Assembly: GCA_016874935.1 (NCBI GenBank)
Contig: VGSS01000001.1
Span: 21,823-85,822 of the forward strand
Origin: Deltaproteobacteria bacterium
Lineage (GTDB): Bacteria > Desulfobacterota > BSN033 > UBA1163
Direction: 5' to 3'
Length of the DNA stretch: 64,000 nt
Position numbers and translations under genes: made by a program. Under the pieces are notes generated by a model, which worked only from the letters and a program-made list of their open reading frames with translations, did not search any database and was not told where the DNA came from. Positions 4,822 to 23,740 of this stretch are shown one piece after another; within the stretch, counting starts at the first letter, position 1; the number at the start of each line of letters is the position of its first letter.

Positions 4822-6362
4822 TCTATCACCTCGTAAATGATCAACTCCTGATCCGCCTTTCTGAATACCTCCTTCAAATCTTTTGATTGAATTAAATCTT
4901 CTGATTGAATGGCCTCGATAAACCCTCGATTTATCTCCCGAGTATTTTTATTGACGAGGATATAGCGAACTCCCTTTGTTTTGGCAAAACGGATAACCTC
5001 GTAATAAGATTCGACAGGGCCTCCGGTTCCGGAAATTTCCTGTTGTAACATGATAAATTCCCGATCCGCATAAAATGTCTCCTGAGGGCTATTGCTCATA
5101 ATGATAGCATCGGGAGGGGTGTTCTGTTTTAACCATACCCCAACTTTTTTCTGAAATGCGCGATGCCCCCTCTCCGGTTTCAAACTCTGCGGCAATTGAA
5201 CTAAAATCACCAAAGCGATAATCAAGAAAATGGCATTTTCTGGGCTGACGATCTTGATTTTCTCCACATATCTTTTCATTTCCAGAATCCCTGCGCCAGC
5301 CCAGAAGAGAGAAAGAGGGATCACCGGAATTGAAAAACGGATGGTGGAGGGCAGAAAGGTCGATAAAGAAAGCAAATGGAAGAGCACCAGGGAGGTCAGG
5401 AATAACTCATAGGCGATACCTTCGCGCCTAATTCTTATTAGCCCGAAAAATAAAATAAGCCACAATGAAAAATGGTAGGCCCTCAGATAGTGGTAGGCCA
5501 CAGGAGGGAAATAGTGAACAATATTTCTGGTCATCCAAATAATTTTTGAATTCTCCTTTTCAGGGCTGCTCTGTTCAACCCCTTTAAAGGGGGTAATCTC
5601 CTCTACGCCCTTTTTAAATAGTTGAGATTGCGCTTCAACAGCCTTCTTGCTAATTAGCCACTGACCTGTTTCCTGGCGGACATAGATAACGTATGGAAGC
5701 CCGAAGATAAATAGGCTCGAAACTAAAACTCCAATGGAAACAAGTGGTTTAAACCACCTCTTTTTAAGAATACCATCGACGGCTATCCAAGCCAGGTAAA
5801 CTAAAATGTAGCCAATCGCTTCCGGTCTTGTGAGATAGGCCAGACCAAGGGAAAATCCTGATAAAACCATTCTCCATACTTTATCCCTTTTCAGTCCTGT
5901 CCAGAAAAAATAAACCGATAGGACCAACAATCCCCAATAAGTGGCCTCGGTGAGCATCATTCCCGAGTAAGTCACCAGGTAGGGATGAAATGTGTAAAAA
6001 AGTGCTGAAAAGATGGCTACTTTTCTACCAACGGCTTCTTTTACTAAATAAAAGAGGGGAATAATAATTATGGTTCCAAAAAAAAGAGAGAGCAATCTTC
6101 CGGACATTTCAACGTGTGTGGTGTCCATCGAAAACAGGGAAATCAAGAAAGGATAAAAAGGGGGGGCAGGTGAAGATAATCCTTTGGTAAAATGATCCTT
6201 TAAAAAATCCCTTGCCACAAAACCATAATGTGCCCCATCGTAGGGAATCCCCTGCGCCATCAGGACGGCATAGAACCTCAGGATAAAGGCCGTTCCAATG
6301 AGAAGGAAGAGGATCTGTCTCTCATTAAGGCTTTTAAAGAAACAAATAATTTTATTGACCAT
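4818..6362 (-). CDS. ArnT/GT39-like membrane glycosyltransferase (lipid-carrier dependent)
   Basis: 514 aa with a multi-TM N-terminal domain and a soluble C-terminal domain. Family assignment is approximate. Confidence 0.5.
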   Translation of the reverse strand: MVNKIICFFKSLNERQILFLLIGTAFILRFYAVLMAQGIPYDGAHYGFVARDFLKDHFTKGLSSPAPPFYPFLISLFSMDTTHVEMSGRLLSLFFGTIIIIPLFYLVKEAVGRKVAIFSALFYTFHPYLVTYSGMMLTEATYWGLLVLSVYFFWTGLKRDKVWRMVLSGFSLGLAYLTRPEAIGYILVYLAWIAVDGILKKRWFKPLVSIGVLVSSLFIFGLPYVIYVRQETGQWLISKKAVEAQSQLFKKGVEEITPFKGVEQSSPEKENSKIIWMTRNIVHYFPPVAYHYLRAYHFSLWLILFFGLIRIRREGIAYELFLTSLVLFHLLSLSTFLPSTIRFSIPVIPLSLFWAGAGILEMKRYVEKIKIVSPENAIFLIIALVILVQLPQSLKPERGHRAFQKKVGVWLKQNTPPDAIIMSNSPQETFYADREFIMLQQEISGTGGPVESYYEVIRFAKTKGVRYILVNKNTREINRGFIEAIQSEDLIQSKDLKEVFRKADQELIIYEVID

Positions 6363-7554
6363 CCATTGCAGCCCTTTTCACCTTCATAAAATGTTTGGTG
6401 ATGACATGAAGAATGATTTCTCCTGCTTTTCCATGCCCAAACAACTCCCTTTCACCTCTAAAGGATTTTCTACTTTCAATCAGTTTCAATCCATTTAAAA
6501 TCTTTCTGGTCCCTGCCCCAATCAATATATTCCATCCGCTTTTGACCGTTTCAACCCACTCAGTTTCATCCCTTAATGTTAAACAAGGAACCTTGAACCA
6601 GTAGGCCTCTTTCTGCACGCCTCCGGAGTCGGTCAGGATGGCCCTGGCATTTTTTTCCAGGGCGATCATATTGAGGTATGAAACGGGTTTAATTAGTTTA
6701 ACCCTATGGTCATCTGGGGAAAGATCGTAGGTTTTCATCATCTTCTTGGTTCTGGGATGAAGAGGAAGGATGATAGGAGCTTTTTTTCCGATCTCATTTA
6801 GGGCTTTCAGAATGGATTTTAGCCTCTTTGGATCATCAGTGTTTTCGGCGCGGTGGAGGGTGGCTAAATAATATTGCGGATTGCGGATTGTGGATTGTGG
6901 ATTGAAAAGATCTAAATCCTTAAGAATCGTTGGCTTCTTTTCAGCTATTTTGGAGTAGTACAGAATCGAATCGAACATTACATCGCCTACGTTTTTGACA
7001 ATCTTTCCTTTCCCATTCCTGACTCCCTCTTTCAATAGATTTTGAACAGCTTGAGTGGTGGGACAGAAGAGAAAGGTGGAGAGATGGTCGGTGAGAAGGC
7101 GGTTGATCTCCTCCGGCATCCTGCGGTTATAACTCCTTAATCCAGCTTCCACATGGGCTATCGGGATATCCAGTTTGGCAGCAGCTAATGCTCCGGCCAG
7201 GGTCGAGTTGGTATCGCCGTAAACAAGAACCGCTCCTGGTTTTTCCTTTTGAAGAACGGCCTCAATTCGTTCAAGCATGATTCCGGTCTGTTTCCCATGG
7301 GACCCCGATCCTACTCCCAGATGGTAATGCGGCTGAGGAAGATCAAGTTCTTCAAAAAAGACCTTATCCATCAGGTAGTCGTAGTGCTGACCGGTGTGGA
7401 CTAAGATTTCTTGAATCTTTTTCTTCTTGTTGGATATTTGAATGGCCCGGCTGACGACAGCGGCTTTAATAAATTGTGGTCTTGCACCAATAACGGTTAC
7501 AATCTTCAAAAAGGGGAAAAAGGGGGACAGGCTACTTTTTTTATTGCTTGCCAT
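6352..7554 (-). CDS. wecB: UDP-N-acetylglucosamine 2-epimerase (non-hydrolysing), WecB/WbpI-like
   Basis: KIVTVIGARPQFIK, HTGQHYDY and GDTNSTLAGALAA motifs. The canonical MKIVTV start would be a TTG at 7507-7509. The ATG at 7552-7554 lies inside a REP palindrome, so the N-terminal residues SSLSPFFPF are REP-encoded. Confidence 0.9.
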   Translation of the reverse strand: MASNKKSSLSPFFPFLKIVTVIGARPQFIKAAVVSRAIQISNKKKKIQEILVHTGQHYDYLMDKVFFEELDLPQPHYHLGVGSGSHGKQTGIMLERIEAVLQKEKPGAVLVYGDTNSTLAGALAAAKLDIPIAHVEAGLRSYNRRMPEEINRLLTDHLSTFLFCPTTQAVQNLLKEGVRNGKGKIVKNVGDVMFDSILYYSKIAEKKPTILKDLDLFNPQSTIRNPQYYLATLHRAENTDDPKRLKSILKALNEIGKKAPIILPLHPRTKKMMKTYDLSPDDHRVKLIKPVSYLNMIALEKNARAILTDSGGVQKEAYWFKVPCLTLRDETEWVETVKSGWNILIGAGTRKILNGLKLIESRKSFRGERELFGHGKAGEIILHVITKHFMKVKRAAMDGQ

Positions 7555-8245
7555 AAATTTTCCTTGGCCTTCCAATTGGCCTAATTGTAGATTCTAATCC
7601 TAAATCTTTGCTTAATTGTAACCTCCAAGACTCATTTCCATATGGAGCCTGTCGAATTACACTTTGTCGAATTCTCTCTAATTCTTTTGCTGTAACCGGC
7701 TCGTTTACATAATCTCCCCAATCTTTAGGTAATTCTAACGGAATGGTATCAATCAAAATACGACTTCTCATTCCCAATGATTCCTGGCTTGACGACCACA
7801 ACCAGTCCTTCGCTGAGTTAACCAACCCCGCTCGCTTTGGATTTCCTTCCACGTAACGCATCACCATCAATAAATGATTGTCCTTTTGAATAAGAAAGCT
7901 CTTATAGCGCCCCTGCCAAACGTGACCTCTTGTTTCATAATGCCGATGATATCGGCGCACATGACTTGTCATTAGCCATTGCATCCATTTGCTTAAATCT
8001 TCAGCGTAATTGGGCATCAAAATTATATGAAAATGGTTTGGCATAAGACAATAAGCAAAAATCTTAACTTCATAACGGGTCTTTGCCTCTTTCACTAATT
8101 CTATAAATGCCTCATAATCTTTGTCTTTATGAAATACTATTTGGCCACCATTTCCTCGATTGATGACATGATATACTGACTCATCAACTAACCCCCTTGA
8201 AATTCTTGGCATTCAAAAAACTCCTTCAAAAAGTAGCCTGTCCCC
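7522..8245 (-). mobile_element. REP-associated tyrosine transposase unit: RAYT gene flanked by inverted REP copies (7522-7540 and 8227-8245)
   Basis: gggggacaggctacttttt at 7522-7540 and its exact reverse complement aaaaagtagcctgtccccc at 8227-8245 bracket the transposase ORF. Confidence 0.75.
7541..8212 (-). CDS. IS200/IS605-family Y1 transposase, RAYT type (REP-associated tyrosine transposase)
   Basis: YHVINRGNGGQ...AYCLMPNHFHIIL motifs (HuH plus catalytic Tyr region) typical of TnpA_IS200/RAYT. Confidence 0.85.
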   Translation of the reverse strand: MPRISRGLVDESVYHVINRGNGGQIVFHKDKDYEAFIELVKEAKTRYEVKIFAYCLMPNHFHIILMPNYAEDLSKWMQWLMTSHVRRYHRHYETRGHVWQGRYKSFLIQKDNHLLMVMRYVEGNPKRAGLVNSAKDWLWSSSQESLGMRSRILIDTIPLELPKDWGDYVNEPVTAKELERIRQSVIRQAPYGNESWRLQLSKDLGLESTIRPIGRPRKIYGKQ

Positions 8246-8255
8246 CTTTTTTTTC

Positions 8256-8837
8256 TTAAATCAGTCTCACTCCAGTGGAATCTTTTTTGTATCGCTTGCC
8301 GCAGGCTTTGCATGTAGCTTTTCTGGATCGGAAGATAATTTCTTCAGCACACTGGCATACCCATCCCTTGACTTTACCCGGATTCCCATAGACCAGAGCA
8401 TAATCCGGAACATCCTTGGTCACCACGGAAGCGGCTCCGATAAAGGCATACTCTCCAATCGTATTACCGCAGACAATCGTTGCATTGGCTCCAATCGTAG
8501 CCCCTCTTTTTACAAGTGTTCGCCGGAATTCCTTCTTCCTCGATATAAAACTCCGGGGGTTAAAGACATTGGTAAAGACCATGGAGGGACCGCAGAAGAC
8601 ATCATCTTCCAGAACCACGCTATCGTAAAGGGAGACATTGTTTTGAATCTTGATGTTATTCCCCAGGATAGCGCCGGACGCAATAAACGCATTCTGCCCG
8701 ATGATGCAATTCTTCCCGATCTTCGCCCCGGACATGACATGAGAAAAATGCCAGACCTGGGTCCCTTCACCAATCTCAGCGGGATCATCTGCCACCGCTG
8801 TCGGATGAATGAAATATTTTATTTTCATTTTATTCAT
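8256..8837 (-). CDS. Hexapeptide-repeat sugar N-acetyltransferase, WbpD/WlbB-like
   Basis: VWHFSHV...[28 protein letters not shown] pattern typical of WbpD/WlbB. Probable ATG start at MNKMKIKY (8837) with a GGTGGGGG Shine-Dalgarno sequence. The C-terminal tail has a CxC..CxxC arrangement. Confidence 0.7.
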
Positions 8838-22557: not shown

Positions 22558-22615
22558 AAAAAACTATTAAATTCACCCATCGAAGTCAATACCACCAACT
22601 AAAAAAGGGGAAAAA

Positions 22616-22684
22616 GGGGACAGGCTACTTTTTGATTTTTTCTTTTGCAATTTTTCTTCACATTTAAAAAGTAGCCTGTCCCCT
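22616..22684. repeat. REP doublet (inverted pair of the same REP as at the RAYT gene)
   Basis: ggggacaggctactttt ... aaaagtagcctgtcccc. The right arm encodes the last residues KRGQATF and the stop codon of the downstream GT9 gene. Confidence 0.7.
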
Positions 22685-23740
22685 TTTTTCTGCTAAAACC
22701 TCTCTTGTTGCCTTAAAAACGTCGTCAACTGCGATTTCCTTCAGGCACTTGAGCTCTTTGCAGGAGCGGTCACGGCACGGATTACATCCTACATTTTTAA
22801 TGACTTTTTTATGAGGTCCAAATGGCCCATTGATTACTGGATCGGTCGGACCATAAATGACCACTACGGGAATTCCCATCAAGGAGGCGACATGCATTGG
22901 ACCCGTATCTCCCCCAATATAGAGATCGCAGCGCCTGTATACCTCCCCCAATTGTGTGAGGGAGATGGTGTGGGGGCCGAGCACGGAAGATTCTTTCATC
23001 CTCCTCTGAATCATCTTTACCCATTCCAGTTCACCCGGACCCCAGGTGAAGAGCACCGTTGCCTTCAGTTCATGAACAAGCTGGTCTGCCAGTTGAGCGT
23101 ATTTATCGGGCAGCCACCTTTTATAGAGTGTCTTCGGGCTGGTTCCGGGATGGATCGCAATGGAAGGGCTCTTAAGCGGAGGGAAGAGTTGATTAAAAAA
23201 AGAATTCACATACCCCCGGTCCTCAGCCGGGATAAAGAGTGGATAATCCTCAGGCTGAACCTCTAAACCCATTCCCTTCAGGAGATAAAAATTTCTCTCA
23301 AATCGACTGATCCTCTCTTTCGGAAGCTTCACTTTCTTATTCGAAAACAGGAAATTTCCTTCCTTGCTCGACCTTCGATCATATCCGATCCGTTGAGGAG
23401 AACCGGAGAGAAAAGAGAGGAGGCCGCTCTTCAGAATACCGTGAAAATCGAGGACCAGATCAAATTTCTTCCTCCGGAGGGATTGAATAAATGTTCGAAC
23501 CTCTCCGATCGTCCTCCACCCTTTAAGAGCCCTGATTCCTTCGGACCACCTTTGTCTTGGAAAGAGGATAACCTCTTCAACTTCCGGCTGGCTTTCTACA
23601 AGGGCTTTCGAGGTTTCTTCAACAATCCAGGTGATGGAGGCGGATGGGAAGTTTTTCTTTATAGCCTTTACCGCAGGAAGCGTTCGGATCACATCCCCCA
23701 CGGCGCTTAGCCTCAAAACTAAAATTTTCTGATTATCCAT
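22664..23740 (-). CDS. ADP-heptose:LPS heptosyltransferase (GT9; WaaC/WaaF-like)
   Basis: KILVLRLSAVGDVIRTLPA and GDTGPMHVASLMGIPVVVIYG motifs. Probable start at MDNQKIL. Confidence 0.8.
   Translation of the reverse strand: MDNQKILVLRLSAVGDVIRTLPAVKAIKKNFPSASITWIVEETSKALVESQPEVEEVILFPRQRWSEGIRALKGWRTIGEVRTFIQSLRRKKFDLVLDFHGILKSGLLSFLSGSPQRIGYDRRSSKEGNFLFSNKKVKLPKERISRFERNFYLLKGMGLEVQPEDYPLFIPAEDRGYVNSFFNQLFPPLKSPSIAIHPGTSPKTLYKRWLPDKYAQLADQLVHELKATVLFTWGPGELEWVKMIQRRMKESSVLGPHTISLTQLGEVYRRCDLYIGGDTGPMHVASLMGIPVVVIYGPTDPVINGPFGPHKKVIKNVGCNPCRDRSCKELKCLKEIAVDDVFKATREVLAEKRGQATF

Follow-up and report, generated by a model that had tools for sequence, protein, structure and literature searches.

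What kind of element is formed by a transposase-like gene that lies between two inverted copies of one short repeat in a surface-polysaccharide operon, and have these repeats become part of the genes beside it? We addressed these questions for a stretch of 64,000 nt from a Deltaproteobacteria bacterium of the Desulfobacterota (GenBank assembly GCA_016874935.1, contig VGSS01000001.1, positions 21,823 to 85,822), which we call the window and in whose coordinates all positions are given. An earlier note on this DNA had described an IS200-like tyrosine transposase of the RAYT type that was flanked by repetitive extragenic palindromes (REPs) and inserted inside the lipopolysaccharide (LPS) gene cluster, and whose repeats supplied coding sequence to wecB and, through a second copy, to a GT9 heptosyltransferase gene. 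Our results suggest that the unit at 7517-8251 is very probably a TIRtron, i.e., a vertically inherited, single-copy TIRYT gene between its cognate terminal inverted repeats (TIRs), with a doublet of the same repeat at the heptosyltransferase gene as its gene-less dimer. The TIRs of this element would take the form A5-GGGG(G)ACAGGCTAC-T5, with the GGGG ends facing outward.

The repeat unit and its protein

The open reading frame (ORF) of the transposase is enclosed by an inverted repeat of 24 nt whose arms are 100% complementary (7517-7540 and 8228-8251, AAAAAGGGGGACAGGCTACTTTTT). Scanning the window with GGGGGACAGGCTACTTTTT yielded exact copies at 7522-7540 (+ strand) and 8228-8246 (- strand) and two copies with one mismatch at 22615-22633 (+) and 22666-22684 (-), that is, four matches compared to 0.03 expected in shuffled sequence. 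The two flanking copies are exact, as had been reported, and the left arm was placed correctly; the right arm lies at 8228-8246 and not at 8227-8245. No further copy of the 12-nt core of the repeat was found in the 64-kb window beyond these four. At two more sites (29881 and 51621), the outer repeat end GGGGACAG stands without the remainder of the repeat, and both represent chance matches. This outer end fits the motif GGGGWSAS exactly, a motif that is not enriched in the window as such (24 occurrences observed vs 22.5 expected). No Rfam family was detected in the whole window at gathering thresholds, and a full-text search of the literature for the repeat sequence returned only unrelated matches to human primers.

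The flanking repeats do not behave as the REP palindromes for which they had been taken. Folded as single-stranded DNA (ssDNA), one repeat unit reaches just -1.3 to -1.9 kcal/mol, and this through an A5:T5 stem only. Every unit contains GTAG/CTAC, with GTAG on the inner side of the arm, beside the loop of the doublet, and not at the foot of a stem. Upstream of the transposase gene, the repeat starts 2 nt past the TAA stop codon of the hexapeptide-transferase gene (8256-8258), which lies 1 nt from the A-run of the repeat (8246-8253, via G8254) in the window, and in one relative (locus L002) the stop codon of this gene overlaps the A-run.

The ORF matches Pfam PF01797 (Y1_Tnp) with E = 1e-16, and its sole sequence match in the PDB is TnpArep of E. 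coli (4ER8). We built an AlphaFold (AF2) model on 43 homologues, which also served to assess residue conservation. For this model (mean pLDDT 83.9), Foldseek again ranks 4ER8 first (E = 8.9e-8, TM 0.74 on the target), ahead of the IS200, IS608 and ISDra2 transposases. In the predicted structure, the protein has a Y1/HUH fold that is closest to that of TnpArep, and both lines of evidence agree with the original description of an IS200-like HUH/Y1 transposase of the RAYT superclass. Across the 43 homologues, H60 and H62 of PNHFHII are invariant (HFH at residues 60-62, 8027-8035), as are Y120 and N124 of the tyrosine motif YVEGNP (from Tyr120, 7853-7855, with P125 in the motif), and W99 and Q100 of VWQGR are invariant or nearly so. 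The C-terminal tail of ~80 aa is conserved as well (W165, R187, P190, G192, W196 and G214-R215-P216) and is predicted to be helical at residues ~160-205, with three helices. No Pfam match to a helix-turn-helix (HTH) or DnaA_C domain was found in the protein at E <= 0.001.

Di Nocera, De Gregorio & Rocco (2013) described RAYT-like genes that have terminal inverted repeats instead of REPs, named TIRYTs, and called the corresponding units TIRtrons; GGGGWSAS is common to many TIRYT repeats, and some TIRYT repeats are also scattered singly or in dimers (PMC3733652). Quentin et al. (2018) provisionally equated these TIRYTs with their TnpA-Y1 subclass 2.1 (PMC6006769), which is group 1 of the RAYTs as defined by Bertels et al. 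2017 (PMC5581495). Members of this subclass present NH[YF]H or NHVH, W[EQ] and Y-x-x-x-N-P (Table 1 of PMC6006769), have a median length of 238 aa and possess a conserved C-terminal tail that is HTH-like in many of them; they do not conserve the residues with which TnpArep reads GTAG, and Quentin et al. found no REPs around their genes (PMC6006769). The NH[YF]H, WQ and Y...NP motifs of our protein fit subclass 2.1, and its length and C-terminal tail may do so as well. In addition, when its GTAG-reading segment is aligned with that of TnpArep (VWQGRYKSFLIQ vs IWQPRFWEHAIR), only WQ (W94 and Q95 of TnpArep) is retained and the TnpArep readers E100, H101 and R104 are replaced. We use the label TIRYT/TIRtron, i.e., a relative but not a strict member of the RAYT/REP systems, because the single unit forms no hairpin, GGGGWSAS is present and the GTAG readers are not conserved. 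The protein motifs and the GGGGWSAS repeat thus place the gene in the TIRYT/TIRtron class (TnpA-Y1 subclass 2.1) and not under RAYT/REP as first labelled. This likely corrects a mislabel, the gene being a TIRYT with TIRs and not a RAYT with REP hairpins, and it provides a well-documented example of the largest, and poorly studied, RAYT-like group, for which one major survey found no associated repeats. The coordinates of all features are given in Table 1.

Table 1. Positions of the TIRtron, the gene-less doublet and the adjoining genes in the window
Feature	Position	Strand	Remarks
wecB/wbpI-like UDP-sugar 2-epimerase gene	6352..7554	-	PF02350, TIGR00236; 400 aa from ATG 7554-7552
9-nt tandem duplication of the outer TIR end	7508..7516	+	AAAAAGGGG (CCCCTTTTT on the gene strand); Tandem Repeats Finder
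Downstream TIR	7517..7540	+	gene strand AAAAAGTAGCCTGTCCCCCTTTTT; immediately follows the stop codon of the transposase gene (7541-7543); wecB reading KKSSLSPF
TIRYT gene, 223-aa HUH/Y1 tyrosine transposase-like protein	7541..8212	-	PF01797, fold, invariant motifs
Shine-Dalgarno sequence GAAGGAG of the transposase gene	8221..8227	-	8 nt before ATG 8212-8210; read from the sequence, putative function
Upstream TIR of the TIRtron	8228..8251	-	AAAAAGGGGGACAGGCTACTTTTT on the gene strand; core invariant in relatives, flanks vary
Doublet, left arm	22611..22633	+	AAAAAGGGGACAGGCTACTTTTT; preceded by the partial duplication AAAAAAGGGG at 22601-22610
Doublet, spacer (loop) of 32 nt	22634..22665		similar spacer in the orthologous doublet of L217
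Doublet, right arm	22666..22688	-	minus strand encodes (K)RGQATF and the TAA stop codon of the GT9 gene
GT9 heptosyltransferase-I-like gene, 358 aa from MDNQK	22664..23740	-	called product P0241

Association of the protein with the repeat across bacteria

We retrieved 80 loci encoding TIRYT homologues from a metagenome set. Most homologues at 62-91% identity present exact GGGGACAGGCTAC upstream of their ATG, usually 19-31 nt away (it is farther in about ten of the first ~50 metagenome homologues, and a few have variants), and exact GTAGCCTGTCCCC downstream, usually 5-25 nt past the end of the protein match. The 13-nt core remains exact beside homologues down to ~62% identity. Below ~60% identity, variants of the repeat emerge and several of these are altered on both arms together: GGGGTCAGGCTAC occurs with GTAGCCTGACCCC, AGGGACAGGCAAC occurs with GGTGCCTGTCCCT, and there are self-complementary GGGGACAGTCCCC forms. 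The protein is accompanied by the repeat at dozens of loci, and where lineages have diverged the two arms have changed in step.

The repeat was also searched as the 18-mer GGGGACAGGCTACTTTTT in one genome per species, and all counts that follow are among the matches listed. The 18-mer was found in at least 120 genome stretches of many phyla, isolates included, compared to a chance expectation of ~17 by our own estimate. Its hosts comprise Bacillota such as Desulfoscipio geothermicus DSM 3669, Desulfobacterota such as Citrifermentans bremense R1 (at least four loci) and Geomonas paludis, Aminicenantes and other Acidobacteriota, Nitrospirota, Myxococcota, Campylobacterota, Elusimicrobia, Omnitrophota, Planctomycetota, Chloroflexota and others. 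A TIRYT homologue (48-62% identical) adjoins the 18-mer in at least eight of these stretches, and two of the eight have the 18-mer on both sides, which is the arrangement of the window. Next to the core, the consensus is rich in A on one side (A at positions -2 and -3 in 95-99% of the copies) and reads T5 on the other. Neighbouring repeats are strongly biased in their orientation, with 68 pairs pointing their GGGG ends outward vs 2 pointing them inward; the cores of the outward doublets are 14-143 nt apart and oriented as around the TIRYT gene. Most copies are intergenic or located at gene 3' ends. The 3' ends of long open frames run into 28 of the 225 cores (12%), and the stop codon of these frames is repeatedly the TAG of GTAG or the TAA of TTTTTAA.

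Several individual copies deserve mention. One exact 18-mer lies at the end of a 4.6-kb contig from a metagenome-assembled genome of Candidatus Woesearchaeota (L020, CAYTYH010000043.1), which could reflect a binning error or a rare archaeal occurrence. Three divergent TIRYT loci (L168, L188 and L213) are flanked by the self-complementary GGGGACAGTCCCC. Finally, the intergenic region after the GT9 gene of locus L215 (~2790-2825) contains a compact palindrome, AAAAGGGGACAGATTTCAAGTCTGTCCCCTTTT, made from the outer GGGGACAG part only; by its sequence, the outer repeat motif can evidently exist as a true hairpin form.

Conservation of the gene in the operon

The exact TIRYT protein was found on 8 contigs and has one gene context in all of them. 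Gene order is preserved in relatives with a 70-91% identical TIRYT (GT2, GFO/MocA oxidoreductase, hexapeptide acetyltransferase, TIRYT, wecB and PMT_2), and their neighbouring proteins are 67-85% identical, a level similar to that of the TIRYT. When these relatives are aligned, the repeat cores show no variation and the adjacent coding positions vary. On this comparative evidence, the TIRYT gene is a long-term resident between a wbpD-like acetyltransferase gene and wecB. The single copy and the locus kept in relatives are in line with the domesticated transposase proposed in the earlier note. The proposed insertion inside the LPS cluster, which suggests a recent event, is not borne out, as the slot is held across relatives whose neighbouring proteins have diverged to that extent. 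Several of the names given to wecB homologues in databases (UDP-GlcNAc3NAcA epimerase), together with the oxidoreductase and the acetyltransferase, suggest a pathway of the WbpB/WbpD/WbpI type.

Repeats as probable coding sequence of wecB and of the heptosyltransferase gene

Two annotations of wecB disagree on its start, which therefore matters for annotation: JGI starts the gene at the ATG and predicts 400 aa, and NCBI (PGAP, P0121) starts it at TTG 7509-7507 and predicts 385 aa. The ATG overlaps the last 14 nt of the transposase gene and is preceded by the Shine-Dalgarno (SD) sequence AAGGA at 7561-7565. From this ATG, the minus-strand frame reads MASNKKSSLSPFFPF, then L (the TTG) and then KIVTVIGARPQFIK. 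About 100 of 120 WecB homologues begin M(K/V)KI(V/A)T(I/V)VGARPQFIK, with MKIVT as the start in ~90% of the homologues, and about 10 of the 120 carry a leader with KKSSLSPF, which is the repeat read in one frame. The claim that the repeat encodes the N-terminus of wecB as read from the ATG holds in this comparison: repeat-free WecB homologues start MKIVT... and only repeat-bearing loci present NKKSSLSPF... The TTG at 7507-7509 that a canonical WecB start was said to need is present exactly there.

The relatives suggest how this arrangement arose. In more distant TIRYT-wecB loci (TIRYT 70-75% identical), 6-19 nt, mostly with a purine-rich SD-like stretch, separate the repeat from the canonical ATG behind it. 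The repeat of these unfused relatives occurs in all three frames relative to wecB, as expected of non-coding DNA; that of the fused loci is always in the KKSSLSPF frame. The clade of the window has neither this spacer nor the canonical ATG, and its repeat adjoins Lys2 directly with the T-run. CCAAGGAAAATTTATG is invariant in the six aligned fused lineages, with AAGGA located 6 nt before the ATG within the last TIRYT codons, and the distance from the ATG to Lys2 (39, 42 or 48 nt) is divisible by three in every case. The 9-nt duplication at 7508-7516 adds three in-frame codons to the leader of the window and is missing from L002, L006, L218, L219 and L220. The codon at the canonical Met position is TTG in the window and L219, TTT in L002 and L218, and TTA in L220, so that three lineages (L002, L218 and L220) have no start there; in L006, an ATG is found one codon past the canonical position. 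The TTG of the window has no SD sequence, because the 26 nt upstream of it are all pyrimidine apart from GTAG.

By this comparison, the sub-lineage has lost, through a deletion, the spacer, the ribosome-binding site and the ATG between the downstream repeat and wecB. With its own signals deleted, wecB would then be translated from the ATG in the transposase gene through the repeat, which adds MASNKKSSLSPFFPF to the protein. From these sequence patterns, we regard the ATG as the probable start of wecB and the repeat as probably translated.

The second doublet that had been described as lacking a transposase was confirmed as a gene-less doublet at 22611-22688. The GT9 ORF ends ...AEKRGQATF*, with its TAA (22666-22664) in the A-run of the right arm of the doublet. 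Most of 120 listed GT9 homologues end at 354 aa with a tail of the (S/L)(I/V/L)T type, typically ...KE(I/V)LSITA, and the ending ...SITA is found in about 100 homologues; the protein of the window and two others among the 120 (84% and 74% identical) end ...EKRGQA(T/V)F. The locus of the 74% identical protein (L217) presents an orthologous doublet with a similar spacer, and that of the 84% identical protein (L214) presents a decayed doublet. Locus L215, whose GT9 protein is 86% identical, ends ...SITA* and has no doublet at that point. Because only repeat-bearing loci end ...EKRGQA(T/V)F and L215 ends ...SITA*, the GT9 stop codon and the six to seven residues before it derive from the repeat, as the earlier note had claimed. 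By this comparison, the repeat dimer put ...AEKRGQATF* in the place of an ancestral ...SITA* at this gene. Downstream of the gene, L215 with its empty site is too diverged to mark the exact insertion point of the doublet. A simple deletion that joined the inner ends of the TIRtron was also considered as the source of the doublet spacer and rejected, as there is no resemblance by eye. Repeat-derived stop codons are a known phenomenon: according to Di Nocera et al., GTAG repeats often provide TAG stops and terminal residues, and more than 10% of REPs are located at ORF ends (PMC3733652).

Alternatively, it is possible that the repeat is not translated, that wecB starts at TTG 7509-7507 and that the GT9 tail is an ordinary variable C-terminus. 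The TTG of the window is exactly at the canonical wecB start and was chosen by the NCBI pipeline, and the leader may therefore be untranslated in the genome of the window; moreover, Di Nocera et al. caution that artefacts of annotation account for many of the REP 'insertions' at N-termini (PMC3733652). We nevertheless consider this explanation rather unlikely: the TTG is without an upstream SD sequence, the ATG and AAGGA are invariant in six lineages with the frame held over three leader lengths, and three lineages have no start at the canonical position. In addition, unfused loci use all three frames and fused loci always the KKSSLSPF frame, and the stop codon of the GT9 gene is itself within the repeat. 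Relatives with identical wecB and GT9 termini but no repeat, which would contradict a role of the repeat in coding, were looked for, and the repeat-free homologues have different termini. Translation of wecB through the repeat would represent a well-supported case of a gene that lost its own start, borrowed one inside a transposase gene and reads through a repeat.

Two further features of these genes were observed. The 3' end of the GT9 gene is apparently a hotspot for other short repeats: the homologues P0251, P0255, P0262, P0267, P0273, P0279, P0303, P0316, P0324 and P0327 present recurring unrelated tails in place of ...SITA, such as ...TPHPTLPLKGGGR..., ...RDKKRDLECHS and ...EKEDRPPLKC. 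Within wecB, the heptanucleotide ATTGCGG is repeated in tandem at 6873-6904 (4.6 copies, 96% matches). It lies in the loop NPQSTIRNPQ, which is hypervariable in length and sequence among homologues, with much longer PNSELRT-like runs in some of them. Changes in the copy number of ATTGCGG could shift the frame of this surface-polysaccharide gene.

Alternative origins of the gene and its repeats

The element might instead be a classical REPtron, in which a RAYT (TnpArep) lies between GTAG-footed REP hairpins that would be recognised one by one as stem-loops and have spread as REPINs. TnpArep of E. coli is indeed the best match by sequence and by fold, and the top NCBIfam model is REP_Tyr_transpos (NF047646); each unit contains GTAG/CTAC, the doublets are REPIN-like, and the gene is single copy and vertically inherited. 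However, the score of that model (77.8 bits) narrowly misses its curated cut-off of 80, a single unit does not form a proper hairpin, and GTAG is found beside the doublet loop instead of at the foot of a stem. The three GTAG readers are replaced, and NH[YF]H, the C-terminal tail and GGGGWSAS are the features that define subclass 2.1/TIRYT, where no REPs were found. We consider a REPtron improbable and retain the assignment to TIRtrons.

Another explanation is that the repeats are RNA elements of operons, acting as terminators, attenuators or stabilisers, whose evolution was independent of the Y1 protein and which adjoin its gene by coincidence. The hairpin of the doublet has 23 bp and a U-run behind it, and repeat copies in general are mostly intergenic or at gene 3' ends. 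Yet in most of ~60 repeat-bearing loci, which represent many phyla, the distances between the Y1 gene and the repeats on its two sides are similar, and both arms change as the protein diverges. Terminator function alone does not explain the conservation of the 18-mer across phyla, and an origin independent of the protein is very improbable.

Finally, it is just as hard to credit that an active insertion sequence (IS), whether IS200/IS605-like or of a new TIR-bounded type, recently landed in the LPS cluster with the doublet as its miniature inverted-repeat transposable element (MITE): although terminal inverted repeats surround the ORF, MITE-like doublets share the orientation of its ends and group 1 is the most IS-like group of RAYTs according to Bertels et al. 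(PMC5581495), the context is the same in 8 of 8 contigs and the slot the same in relatives with neighbours at 67-85% identity, the IS200 model (NF033573) reaches 16.3 bits for a cut-off of 55, neither a tnpB ORF near the TIRYT gene nor subterminal hairpins are present in the window, close copies are absent from plasmid and phage collections, and the element fits so tightly into the operon that signals overlap. Because the homologues found in these plasmid and phage collections are all distant (the best are 33% and 26% identical), there is no evidence for a current mobile vehicle of the TIRYT gene.

Possible activity of the protein on its repeats

By analogy with TnpArep and with the TnpA of IS608, the TIRYT protein probably nicks and rejoins ssDNA at the repeats, and it would thereby spread and homogenise doublets in trans. 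The gene-less doublet is analogous to a REPIN or a MITE. Its arms can pair over 23 bp, with a U-run behind the stem (RNA: -37.9 kcal/mol, z = -4.7; DNA: ~-23 kcal/mol, z ~-7), and it lies between two co-directional heptosyltransferase genes, a position that suggests a role as terminator or mRNA stabiliser within the operon. The co-variation of protein and repeat and the presence or absence of the doublet at one orthologous site are comparative hints of an action of the protein on the repeat. A partial duplication of the outer end of 9-10 nt (AAAAAGGGG before AAAAAGGGG(G)ACAGG) is found in two separate copies of the window (7508-7516 and 22601-22610); the orthologous copies of L002, L006 and L218-L220 (downstream arm of the TIRtron) and of L217 (doublet arm) do not have it. 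This shared duplication could result from concerted evolution or gene conversion between copies, or from two independent slippage events. Since the same 9-nt duplication occurs in two copies of the window and is missing from the orthologues of relatives, it hints at ongoing homogenisation in trans.

It is conceivable that A5-GGGGACAGGCTAC-T5 is the near-universal cognate site of one TIRYT clade, whose enzyme would still be copying and homogenising outward doublets in trans. Such a site would be almost unchanged across Bacillota, Desulfobacterota, Nitrospirota, Acidobacteriota and Campylobacterota. We regard this extension as possible rather than probable. If it were true, the repeat would belong to a REPIN-like system that spans the bacteria and keeps one fixed recognition sequence, in contrast to the lineage-specific REPs, and its hosts would have built repeat ends into operon signals, including a new translation start of wecB.

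Several points weigh against our explanation of the element as a TIRtron. TIRYTs are not known to have been characterised biochemically, a literature search gave nothing relevant after 2018 on the function of TIRYTs or subclass 2.1, and cleavage by the TIRYT, mobilisation in trans and a benefit to the host are steps that we infer. There are only four copies of the repeat in 64 kb. A simple terminator scan around the doublet flagged nothing, because the loop has 32 nt and the scan was limited to 3-8 nt. The fixed repeat, its geometry around the gene and the orientation bias of the doublets constitute a ready substrate for in vitro tests of TIRYT action.

Comparison with known systems

The element resembles the REPtron of E. 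coli (TnpArep; RAYT group 2, subclass 2.2; REP/BIME/REPIN), which provides the closest solved structure (4ER8), in that one domesticated Y1 gene lies between inverted short repeats that are also found gene-less as inverted doublets. REPs, like the repeats described here, sit at gene 3' ends and can supply stop codons. The two systems differ in that each REP is a GC-rich hairpin with GTAG at its foot, whereas the single unit here is unfolded; the residues with which TnpArep reads GTAG are not conserved in the TIRYT; and REPs vary between genera, whereas the TIRtron repeat is nearly the same across phyla. With the TnpA proteins of the IS200/IS605 family (IS608, ISDra2), the TIRYT shares the HUH/Y1 catalytic fold (Foldseek E ~1e-3) and, presumably, the chemistry of single-strand cutting and joining. 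These proteins have ~150 aa and a Y...Q motif, and their elements present subterminal hairpins, are multi-copy and often carry tnpB; the TIRYT has none of these features.

The capture of repeats as coding sequence has parallels in the Rickettsia palindromic elements (RPEs) and in intragenic and terminal REPs (Di Nocera 2013), where short palindromic repeats likewise give host genes in-frame residues or stop codons. The wecB case differs from these in that unfused relatives have their own SD sequence and ATG and there are fused relatives without another start, so that it is supported by more than annotation alone, and in that the new start lies inside the transposase gene.

The closest counterpart is the TIRYT/TIRtron class, from which the element described here shows no difference in kind. 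In both, a RAYT-like Y1/HUH protein with the motifs NH[YF]H, WQ and Y..xNP is encoded by a gene flanked by TIRs that start with GGGGWSAS (here GGGGACAG) and form no REP hairpins, and a length of ~220-240 aa and a further tail at the C-terminus may be common to both. Both have repeats that are also spread as singles or dimers in moderate numbers, and both are low-copy, mostly chromosomal and very widely distributed across phyla. Quentin et al. reported no repeats around subclass 2.1 genes (PMC6006769), whereas here they are obvious. What is new relative to known TIRtrons is the near-invariance of the core (13 nt plus the A5/T5 flanks) across phyla, the strong outward-facing bias of the doublets, and a place in a surface-polysaccharide operon that has been kept for long, together with the probable capture of the repeat as a translated leader of wecB.

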